30,733 bases of DNA from Promethearchaeota archaeon (GTDB lineage: Archaea; Asgardarchaeota; Lokiarchaeia; Sigyniarchaeales; SOKP01), in NCBI GenBank assembly GCA_019058295.1, contig JAHPZI010000008.1:68132-98864 (forward strand), written 5' to 3'. Positions 18,356-27,177 of this stretch are shown one piece after another. The notes below the pieces were generated by a model. That model did not search any database. It was not told where the DNA came from and was given only the letters and a program-made list of their open reading frames with translations. How positions within the stretch are numbered: the first letter of the stretch is position 1; each line of letters opens with the position of its first letter. A program made the translations under genes and the position numbers.

Positions 18356-18604
18356 TTGAAAGGTTGGGTTAAACTAAATATATTTTATCTTGGCAAATCC
18401 AAAAAGAATCAAATCTTTAGGAGTACTCGTTGGAATCGGGCTAATGATGAAAAAATTTTTAGAAAAACTGTTTATAACGAAGAATACGAGAAAATTGGAT
18501 ACATTAAAGAAATTTTTGGCCCTTTAAAATTACCTTTTATATCGATTAAAACCATCCCCGGTCAAGAATTTAATCCCAAAAACAATCTTTACGTTAAAGT
18601 GTAG
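18356..18604 (+). CDS. gar1: H/ACA RNP subunit Gar1/Naf1
   Basis: V.......IG.I.EIFGP...P...IK core; directly upstream of tfb, the usual archaeal arrangement. Confidence 0.8.
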   Translation: MKGWVKLNIFYLGKSKKNQIFRSTRWNRANDEKIFRKTVYNEEYEKIGYIKEIFGPLKLPFISIKTIPGQEFNPKNNLYVKV

Positions 18605-25258: not shown

Positions 25259-25312
25259 ATTAAAAACTCATTTTAATATGGATATTTTTTAAAATAAATC
25301 TCATAGCGTTTT

Positions 25313-25325
25313 AAATAAATAAAAA
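25313..25325 (-). terminator. U-rich terminator of the H/ACA RNA
   Basis: Minus strand TTTTTATTTATTT begins 13 nt after the last ACA box. Confidence 0.5.
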
Positions 25326-25329
25326 GGTA

Positions 25330-25643
25330 AGGCATTATTGTAGCCTAAAGAGCCGAAACACACTAACACATCTCTCTCATTTAAAGGATATACCGTAAAA
25401 TCGAAAAAGTTCTCTCGTGTTAGGCGTTAATTTCATGCCTTGTTGGGTCATAACCATGTCTGCGACCTGGGTACTGGCTTCAACCTCATTGCTTTGATAT
25501 TTATCGTTGCTTGGTTAAGAGCCCATTTTATTCGCAGCTAATTGCTGATTATTAAACTCGGGATGTTCGCATTTCTTTGCACACATAATCATCGATATTC
25601 ATATGTGCCCTCGAAAACGCAGATACTCCGTCATTATTTTCCC
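25330..25643 (-). ncRNA. Triple-hairpin box H/ACA pseudouridylation guide RNA
   Basis: Three hairpins (25568-25621, 25460-25537, 25343-25425), each with a lower stem, an internal pocket, a K-turn/K-loop carrying AUGA on the 3' side, and an ACA box at its base (25564-66, 25457-59, 25339-41). Stems need G.U pairs that exist only on the minus strand. GC-richer than the flanks, with no long ORF. Confidence 0.85.
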
Positions 25644-25665
25644 AATATAATAATAGAAAAATAAT

Positions 25666-25680
25666 TTTATAAAGATTTTG
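25666..25680 (-). promoter_or_regulatory. BRE/TATA promoter of the H/ACA RNA
   Basis: Minus strand CAAAATC-TTTATAAA, about 23 nt upstream of the GGG at 25643-25641 (predicted start). Confidence 0.6.
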
Positions 25681-27177
25681 TTAATGTTTTCTTCTTAACT
25701 TATCTAAAAATTTATGTTCCGTTTTTCTCCTTATTAAGACGGCATAGATGAGCCCTATGGAAAAAAGTGTACAAATTCCTACTATAATATTAATTTCATA
25801 ATCTGGAAGCCATCCTAGACCTTCTGTATCATAAAATACCTCGCCAGTTTTAGAATCTCTAAAAACCTTACCCCCTGCAGCTCCCTGTTCACTATATGCA
25901 ATGACTATTTCCCAATCTTTTAGTTCATTATCTGGATTGTCTGGATCTACTTGACCATCTTCATATTCGAATTTAAGAGTTATAACAGTTCCATCGAGTT
26001 CTACATCTCCTTTCACTTTTAGATCAGGATTAAGACCTCCGATATTCGTCTCATAATCTTCACCATCAATATCAAAATCATCAATTACTGTCGCAAGATA
26101 TTTATCCGTTGGAGTATATGTTGGTAAACCCTCCATCATTAACATATAAAAGAAATTAAATTTTTCTGGAATTTCCTCATCAATAATTTCCCGTATTGCC
26201 AGTAATGCCTGTGTGCCTTCTTGAATAGGATTCTCTCCAGTTGGATTAAGAGCTGCATCTAAAACTACCGCTGGTAAATTATCCCCTCCTTCGGAAAGTC
26301 TAGGGCGTGGTATCCCTAATTCGTCTTCAAGTGTAGTGGCTATTGTCTTATTAATTTCATTCCAAAGACCAAAATCTTCATTCCTTAAATACGTAAATGA
26401 ATCATTAAAGGCATATATGGAATTTACTACTAAATCACTTCTATAATATAGCTCAGATTCTAAATCTTTTAATTTTTTATATGTATCGTACCAACTATGA
26501 GGGTCTGCCAAGAATGGGCCCCCACCTTTACTATCTGGTTTATCAGGAAAATCTCCTTCAATTCTTCTAGACCATCCTCTTGTTTCCACCATAGTACCGT
26601 CCAATTTTTCACCATATTTATTATTCACATAAGTCTGATCCATTGAATAATTTCGACAAAAATCTGTTGCAATAGAACCGTTTCCAACAACAGCGGACAT
26701 TGGAAGATCTCCTAATTCAAGAACGGAATTAATTACTCCCTCATATAGAAGAACTACTGCACCAAATCCACTTTCATTATCTCCAAGCCCATTTGTAGCG
26801 TCCATTATGTAACCAAAAACACTATTGAAATCTGTAATTTCTTCTATACTCTCAACATCGACATCTACGGTAAGTATATAGTCGGCAAAAAAATCAATTT
26901 CACATTCTTCCCAATCGACAAGTTTTCCCTTACTTTTTGCTCCAACAACGTCAGCATATTTCCCAAAAAAATCGTCTGGGTTATCAGCCCCCACTCCTAA
27001 ATGATCATCCCATTCATCCTCGTCGTATAATATTACTCGTGACTCTCCTTCAAGCTTCAGATCTCTAGTAATTTCAGGTACTCCAAATTTATAACCCCTC
27101 ACAGGTTTTGCCATAGAAAAAAAGCTAATGACAAAAATGAAAATAAAAAATACAAAATATATAATTTTTTTATTCAT
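25681..27177 (-). CDS. Acidic secreted cell-surface protein with C-terminal membrane anchor
   Basis: MNKK + hydrophobic signal peptide; Asp/Glu-rich body; LPDY + TM + RRK tail resembling the Loki-CTERM (IPGY-type) sorting signal. Confidence 0.8.
   Translation of the reverse strand: MNKKIIYFVFFIFIFVISFFSMAKPVRGYKFGVPEITRDLKLEGESRVILYDEDEWDDHLGVGADNPDDFFGKYADVVGAKSKGKLVDWEECEIDFFADYILTVDVDVESIEEITDFNSVFGYIMDATNGLGDNESGFGAVVLLYEGVINSVLELGDLPMSAVVGNGSIATDFCRNYSMDQTYVNNKYGEKLDGTMVETRGWSRRIEGDFPDKPDSKGGGPFLADPHSWYDTYKKLKDLESELYYRSDLVVNSIYAFNDSFTYLRNEDFGLWNEINKTIATTLEDELGIPRPRLSEGGDNLPAVVLDAALNPTGENPIQEGTQALLAIREIIDEEIPEKFNFFYMLMMEGLPTYTPTDKYLATVIDDFDIDGEDYETNIGGLNPDLKVKGDVELDGTVITLKFEYEDGQVDPDNPDNELKDWEIVIAYSEQGAAGGKVFRDSKTGEVFYDTEGLGWLPDYEINIIVGICTLFSIGLIYAVLIRRKTEHKFLDKLRRKH

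Follow-up and report, generated by a model that had tools for sequence, protein, structure and literature searches.

Does the genome of an Asgard archaeon encode a guide RNA for a ribosomal modification that is also present in eukaryotes? The question arises from a stretch of 30,733 nt of Promethearchaeota archaeon DNA (GTDB lineage Archaea; Asgardarchaeota; Lokiarchaeia; Sigyniarchaeales; SOKP01; assembly GCA_019058295.1, contig JAHPZI010000008.1, positions 68,132 to 98,864 of the forward strand), which in its full length is referred to here as the window and whose coordinates are used throughout. In an initial annotation, a hairpin in this window had been read as an Asgard guide whose pocket would direct pseudouridylation to the 23S rRNA position equivalent to E. 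coli 2496, the site homologous to Psi2865 of yeast. Our comparative analysis of this hairpin, termed hairpin 1, and of its predicted target indicates that it is probably a genuine, phylum-conserved H/ACA guide and that its predicted site is the 2496-equivalent uridine.

Architecture and conservation of hairpin 1

Hairpin 1 occupies positions 25621 to 25564 on the minus strand and has the build of a box H/ACA hairpin, in which a lower stem, a pocket, an upper stem and a K-loop are followed by an ACA box. It belongs to a longer RNA with the following features:

25330–25643, minus strand: unannotated three-hairpin sRNA, of which hairpin 1 is the first; conserved end to end in 16 of the 18 family genomes sampled for the whole-sRNA comparison
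25615–25621, minus strand: lower stem (H1), 5′ strand UGCGUUU; 7 bp with 25574–25568, including two G·U
25609–25614, minus strand: pocket, 5′ guide strand UCGAGG; six Watson–Crick pairs with 23S C2498–A2503 (CCUCGA)
25602–25608, minus strand: upper stem (H2), 5′ strand GCACAUA; pairs with 25587–25581
25588–25601, minus strand: K-loop with U·U, tandem G·A/A·G (25600–25599 with 25590–25589) and an 8-nt loop
25581–25587, minus strand: upper stem (H2), 3′ strand UAUGUGU; pairs counted in the 17 aligned orthologues
25575–25580, minus strand: pocket, 3′ guide strand GCAAAG; GCAA pairs with 23S U2492–C2495
25568–25574, minus strand: lower stem (H1), 3′ strand AAAUGCG; pairs counted in the same 17 orthologues
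25564–25566, minus strand: ACA box, 14 nt below the top of the pocket

Archaeal H/ACA motifs have been described by a lower stem of at least 7 bp, loop strands of 5–11 nt, an upper stem of at least 5 bp and an ANA box at a spacing of 14–15 nt (PMC2377435). The corresponding values of hairpin 1 all lie within these ranges, with 7 bp in H1, loop strands of 6 and 6 nt, 7 bp in H2 and the ACA at 14 nt. Its upper stem consists of six Watson–Crick pairs with a closing G·U and a U·U under the G·A pairs, and is counted as 6 to 8 bp depending on the convention; the rule derived from Pyrococcus is an H2 of 5–6 bp, and a 7-bp H2 was inactive there (PMC2377435). Within the alignment of 17 orthologues, which comprises the copy from the window and those of 16 relatives of the same family, the UGA and AUGA of the K-loop are invariant and a U·U or U·G pair lies beneath the tandem G·A/A·G, and we infer from these features that the K-loop is the binding site for L7Ae. 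The distance between the GA and the first guide base is 8 nt, which we take to be the same as in the crystallised Pf9 RNA. The spacing between pocket and ACA is 14 nt in 16 of the 17 orthologues and 15 nt in the remaining one, and one orthologue has AUA in place of ACA.

The assignment of the pocket depends on the register of the upper stem, and pairs were counted in the orthologues for both possible registers. In the K-loop register, the only one in which the borders of the pocket given above are valid, the upper stem runs from G25608·U25581 to A25602–U25587 and is continued by U25601·U25588 and the tandem G·A/A·G. This stem is 97.5% paired across the 17 sequences and three of its pairs have changed on both sides. 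Together with the lower stem, where six of seven pairs have done so, this gives 9 of 14 stem pairs with changes on both sides, and none of 500 shuffles attained the observed values. The minimum-free-energy fold of the single sequence, as computed by RNAfold, is shifted by 2 and forms an upper stem from G25608–C25579 onward; were it the correct one, the pocket would have been misread, its 3′ strand would be AAAG and another target would be specified. We regard such a misreading as highly improbable. The shifted stem is paired to a lower degree (88.2%) and contains one compensatory pair against three, with G20–C56 broken in five sequences. Furthermore, it shortens the spacing between pocket and ACA to 12 nt, less than the 14–15 nt of the rule (PMC2377435), abolishes the K-loop and absorbs the GC of the 3′ pocket strand into the upper stem. 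The RNAfold register was thus rejected on covariation. The pocket strands as originally read on the minus strand, UCGAGG at 25614–25609 and GCAAA at 25580–25576, were correct in letters and position, and they specify the target UUUGC-U-N-CCUCGA.

A covariance model built from hairpin 1 detected one copy per genome in 112 of the 126 genomes of the family that were searched, and three further families of the class yielded weaker matches. Among all of these, CGAGG and GCA of the pocket never vary while the stems around them are rewritten. To cover the phylum we used a descriptor which fixes the pocket letters (TCGAGG and GCAA), two GA dinucleotides, the spacings and the ACA and which does not demand any pairing in the stems. 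It matched 110 of 400 genomes, compared to two matches for the reversed pattern that served as control. In the families f13, f16, f19, f20, f6 and f7, the matches have stem sequences that are unrelated and yet complementary: 7–8 of 8 positions of the upper stem are paired, a lower stem of 5–9 bp abuts the ACA, and the 14-nt spacing to the ACA is kept. Two of the matches inspected (L178 and L194) lack stems and probably arose by chance. Almost all named public records with the family-level hairpin pattern are metagenome-assembled genomes (MAGs) of Promethearchaeota or Promethearchaeia, in agreement with the original designation of the hairpin as an Asgard guide. The family-specific pattern also occurs on two contigs labelled as Rhodobacteraceae and Pyrinomonadaceae MAGs (L120 and L162), for which mis-binning of Asgard contigs or a chance match is the probable explanation. 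A comparison with Rfam returned no family for the sRNA, either at the gathering threshold or at E-values up to 10, and the literature that we searched contained no paper on Asgard H/ACA guides.

The predicted target uridine at the base of helix 89

The host assembly is 79% complete and contains a partial 23S rRNA gene. A genome-wide search with RF02540 missed this gene; it was retrieved by a word search followed by cmscan, which aligned 1187 nt at the start of contig C11 (G000:C11:1-1187) to model positions 2019–2987 of RF02540 with 856 bits. Signature words of 16S rRNA were not found in this genome. The 23S fragment reads GGCUUGCUUCCUCGAUGUCGG, with the target stretch CUUGC-U-U-CCUCGA, and the 23S rRNAs of nine relatives are identical to it at this stretch. 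GCAA of the guide pairs with UUGC and UCGAGG with CCUCGA, while the two Us between them remain unpaired, giving 4+6 Watson–Crick pairs. Five plus six pairs had been predicted; the six pairs of the 5′ strand hold, whereas the first pair of the 3′ strand fails, as A25576 faces C2491 in an A·C mismatch. Among all sites scanned in complete 23S and 16S rRNA, this one is the unique best with its 10 Watson–Crick pairs and the sole site with at least nine contiguous pairs; shuffled pockets attained 10 bp in 10 of 500 trials. The only exact occurrence of UUUGCUNCCUCGA in the genome (contig C20) is not rRNA and lies antisense to a 419-aa ORF, and we treated it as a chance match.

In other Asgard families the 23S rRNA reads CUUGCUACCUCGA or CUUGCUUCCUCGA, and therefore the unpaired N varies and the paired flanks do not. 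The 23S rRNA of the other families with descriptor matches reads CUUGCU(A/U)CCUCGA. The sequence UUGCUACCUCGA, which the initial annotation had given as archaeal, is present in other Asgard families and absent from the family studied here. On the side of the guide, position 5 of the 3′ pocket strand is a G in other genera and forms a fifth pair with the 23S rRNA. Some genera carry GCAU, so that their 3′ guide forms only three pairs, while others form five. Covariation between guide and target was not seen at this position, and the genera with a GCAU guide still have CUUGC in their 23S rRNA. According to the rules established for Pyrococcus, the interaction of the 3′ guide weighs most (PMC2377435); here it comprises four pairs followed by the A·C mismatch.

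The position of the target uridine follows from a gap-free alignment of the Asgard and E. coli 23S rRNAs from 2444 to 2510, which identifies it as E. coli 2496, a C in bacteria. In the annotated E. coli 23S rRNA, CCUCGAUGUCGG begins at 2498. The textbook modification sites Cm2498, m2A2503 and Psi2504 of E. coli agree with the numbering used. The E. coli record on which this numbering is based is about 30 nt short; since the gap is located downstream of 2510, the numbering of 2496 is unaffected. Hence the 23S rRNA of the host itself has a U at the 2496-equivalent position and not the bacterial C, whose presence had been named as evidence against the prediction. At the base of helix 89, the pairing partner of the target U2496 is A2455.

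We derived the equivalences to the yeast and Pyrococcus abyssi sites from spacing and numbering arithmetic. In yeast 25S rRNA, Psi2865 is guided by snR46 and has been described as a helix 89 pair with Psi2826, which corresponds to Psi2457 of E. coli. As 2826+39 equals 2865 and 2457+39 equals 2496 (an offset of 369), Psi2865 is homologous to E. coli 2496, which bears out the homology originally proposed for the target. In P. abyssi, Psi2549, Psi2588 and Psi2603 have been mapped and described as conserved in eukaryotic large-subunit rRNA (Muller et al. 2008). Their spacing of 39 and 15 nt is the same as that of Psi2826, Psi2865 and Psi2880 in yeast, and therefore Psi2588 of P. abyssi also corresponds to E. 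coli 2496. The guide for Psi2588 is motif 1 of Pab40 (Pf7, Afu-4), an RNA with three motifs, as demonstrated by CMCT-RT and in vitro reconstitution, and its equivalent in Thermococcus kodakarensis, Psi2592, needs Cbf5, Nop10 and Gar1 in vivo. Guidance to this site was thus already known from experiments in Pyrococcus and Thermococcus, and the modification shared with eukaryotes, which the initial annotation had put forward for an Asgard guide, is real but neither new nor specific to Asgard archaea.

The three-hairpin RNA and its putative protein partners

Hairpin 1 resembles motif 1 of Pab40, Pho40, Pf7 and Afu-4 in being an archaeal H/ACA motif with a K-turn or K-loop and the first of three hairpins (PMC2377435). 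Judged from the published descriptions of these RNAs, the uridine predicted for hairpin 1 is the one that they guide in 23S rRNA. While Pab40-type sRNAs are found in Thermococcales and Archaeoglobus, hairpin 1 belongs to a mesophilic, AT-rich Asgard lineage and has a 3′ guide of 4 bp. Accordingly, the site, the type of guide and its place in a three-hairpin RNA are all already established in Euryarchaeota, to which hairpin 1 adds a predicted Asgard case.

The comparison extends to the other two hairpins. In most genera of the family (for example L019), hairpin 3 (25339–25425, minus strand) has the 3′ guide UAGU 14 nt from the ACA and the 5′ guide GAGAG. Together the two strands give, for example in G004, a unique match of 4+5 pairs, all of them Watson–Crick, at U1917 of helix 69 with UNN unpaired, and a match to U1917 is also a property of motif 3 of Pab40. 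Unlike Pab40, the subclade of the genome studied here, which comprises this genome and four close relatives, has a 10-nt insertion in the 3′ pocket strand of hairpin 3 that moves UAGU to about 24 nt from the ACA and disrupts the geometry of this match. For this version of hairpin 3, the canonical scan gave no target in helix 89. Hairpin 2 (25460–25537, minus strand) contains a conserved 3′ pocket ACCCAG which is complementary to 23S CUGGGU (E. coli 2579–2584), located 5′ of U2585/U2586, the site that has been proposed for motif 2 of Pf7 and Afu-4. No convincing target of hairpin 2 was found in the canonical scan; a matching 5′ strand was not found and the spacing to the ACA is borderline.

About 40 nt separate the sRNA from the stop codon of a 498-aa ORF that precedes it on the same strand (25681–27177). 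The conserved UUGGGAAAA start region is preceded, at about 25 nt, by a TATA-like TTTATAAAA (25665–25673, minus strand), and downstream of the last ACA there is a T-rich run, CCUUUUUAUUUAUUU (25309–25323, minus strand); these two elements would fit an archaeal transcription unit that is independent of the ORF. Contigs identical to the sRNA are present in metatranscriptome runs of three studies, and those of a fourth study show three differences. These contigs from RNA libraries are confined to 25396–25632 and none covers the flanking ORFs, although they indicate presence and not strand, ends or absence. As RNA libraries can contain DNA, the contigs are to be read as the presence of the sRNA in such libraries. 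In several relatives of the same genus (G001, G004, G008 and G009), the sRNA is flanked on the 5′ side by AUGAUGA, which resembles a box C, and on the 3′ side by CUGA, which resembles a box D, and its terminal bases are complementary; this suggests a terminal C/D-type K-turn like the one described for Pab21. Both terminal boxes are degenerate in the genome studied here, where they read AUGACGG and CUUA (~25625–25640 and ~25325–25340).

With regard to the proteins of an H/ACA particle, Nop10 and L7Ae are encoded in the host genome. A search for Cbf5 in the same assembly, which is incomplete as stated above, did not find it; Cbf5 is present in all five near-complete relatives examined. Moreover, the window itself contains an 82-aa Gar1-like ORF (18356–18604, plus strand), which scored 27.7 bits against Pfam Gar1 at a cut-off of 29.3 and is likely the gene of an H/ACA RNP subunit. 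Some 7 kb separate this ORF from the guide RNA, and a TFB gene follows it directly downstream.

Proposed function and evolutionary implications

From the observed architecture, conservation and covariation of hairpin 1, its complementarity to the target and the homology of the target position, we infer protein binding, catalysis and the presence of pseudouridine as follows. L7Ae would bind the K-loop, and Cbf5, Nop10 and Gar1 would assemble on the lower stem and the ACA box. The nascent 23S rRNA would then pair with the pocket, UUGC (2492–2495) with GCAA and CCUCGA (2498–2503) with UCGAGG. The two residues between these segments, U2496 and U2497, would stay unpaired at the pocket top, at the 14-nt distance from the ACA. 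Cbf5 would isomerise U2496, and in the mature rRNA this residue would form the closing pair A2455–U2496 at the base of helix 89, adjoining the peptidyl-transferase loop.

Two other explanations would keep the hairpin and change its role. The more substantial one accepts a genuine H/ACA hairpin and holds that U2496 is not its substrate in vivo or not the sole one, the true substrate being a tRNA, 16S rRNA or another site, or that the RNA acts as a folding chaperone of helix 89 without catalysis. The short 3′ guide, which forms 3–5 bp depending on the genus, leaves some room for this explanation, and archaeal H/ACA motifs have been reported to serve 2–8 sites with mismatches and bulges. In addition, published predictions were frequently corrected by experiment (PMC2377435). 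However, no other site in 23S or 16S rRNA attains nine contiguous pairs, the next best having seven with three G·U, none of the seven matches to the core motif in the genome falls in a tRNA, and the pocket strands and the 23S site are jointly conserved across the phylum, so that we consider a different or additional role unlikely. Far less probable still is that there is no guide RNA at all, and that the locus either belongs to the upstream 498-aa gene, as its structured 3′ UTR or its terminator, or is a hairpin formed by chance, its complementarity to rRNA being coincidental. Its start some 40 nt downstream of that ORF on the same strand and the lack of an Rfam match would fit such an origin, whereas covarying stems around invariant loop strands, a 14-nt ACA ruler that is kept across families without a common stem sequence, and the excess of 110 over 2 descriptor matches would not. 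The identification of hairpin 1 as an H/ACA guide with U2496 as its predicted site therefore remains the reading that we favour.

How hairpin 1 relates to the eukaryotic guide is a separate matter. The position predicted for hairpin 1 is also that of yeast snR46 and adjoins the peptidyl-transferase centre at the base of helix 89, and the two RNAs follow a common guide logic, with a pocket of two strands and the 3′ ACA as a ruler. The yeast target at the snR46 site is presumably UUUGAU-U-C-UUCGA, unlike the Asgard sequence, and the guide strands of snR46 presumably differ accordingly. Since the 10 guide bases are dictated by the target itself, they are no measure of orthology between snR46 and hairpin 1. 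In contrast to hairpin 1, eukaryotic RNAs of the snR46 type have two hairpins with an H box and an ACA box, lack a K-turn, and have Nhp2 in place of L7Ae (PMC7991803). It is conceivable, if unlikely, that the three-hairpin sRNA, with hairpin 1 directed to U2496, hairpin 3 to helix 69 and hairpin 2 perhaps to U2585/U2586, is a single ancient gene which Euryarchaeota and Asgard archaea received by vertical inheritance, and that snR46 and its orthologues descended from its first hairpin. If true, this would be among the very few snoRNA–target pairs that can be traced through eukaryogenesis.

Overall, our analysis adds an unannotated, phylum-conserved guide RNA to Asgard genomes and predicts that the base of helix 89 carries a pseudouridine in Asgard ribosomes. 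The eukaryotic modification is not thereby traced to Asgard archaea in particular. A guided site common to Thermococcales, Archaeoglobus, several Asgard classes and eukaryotes would support the published view that some pseudouridines of the large subunit predate the split between archaea and eukaryotes.
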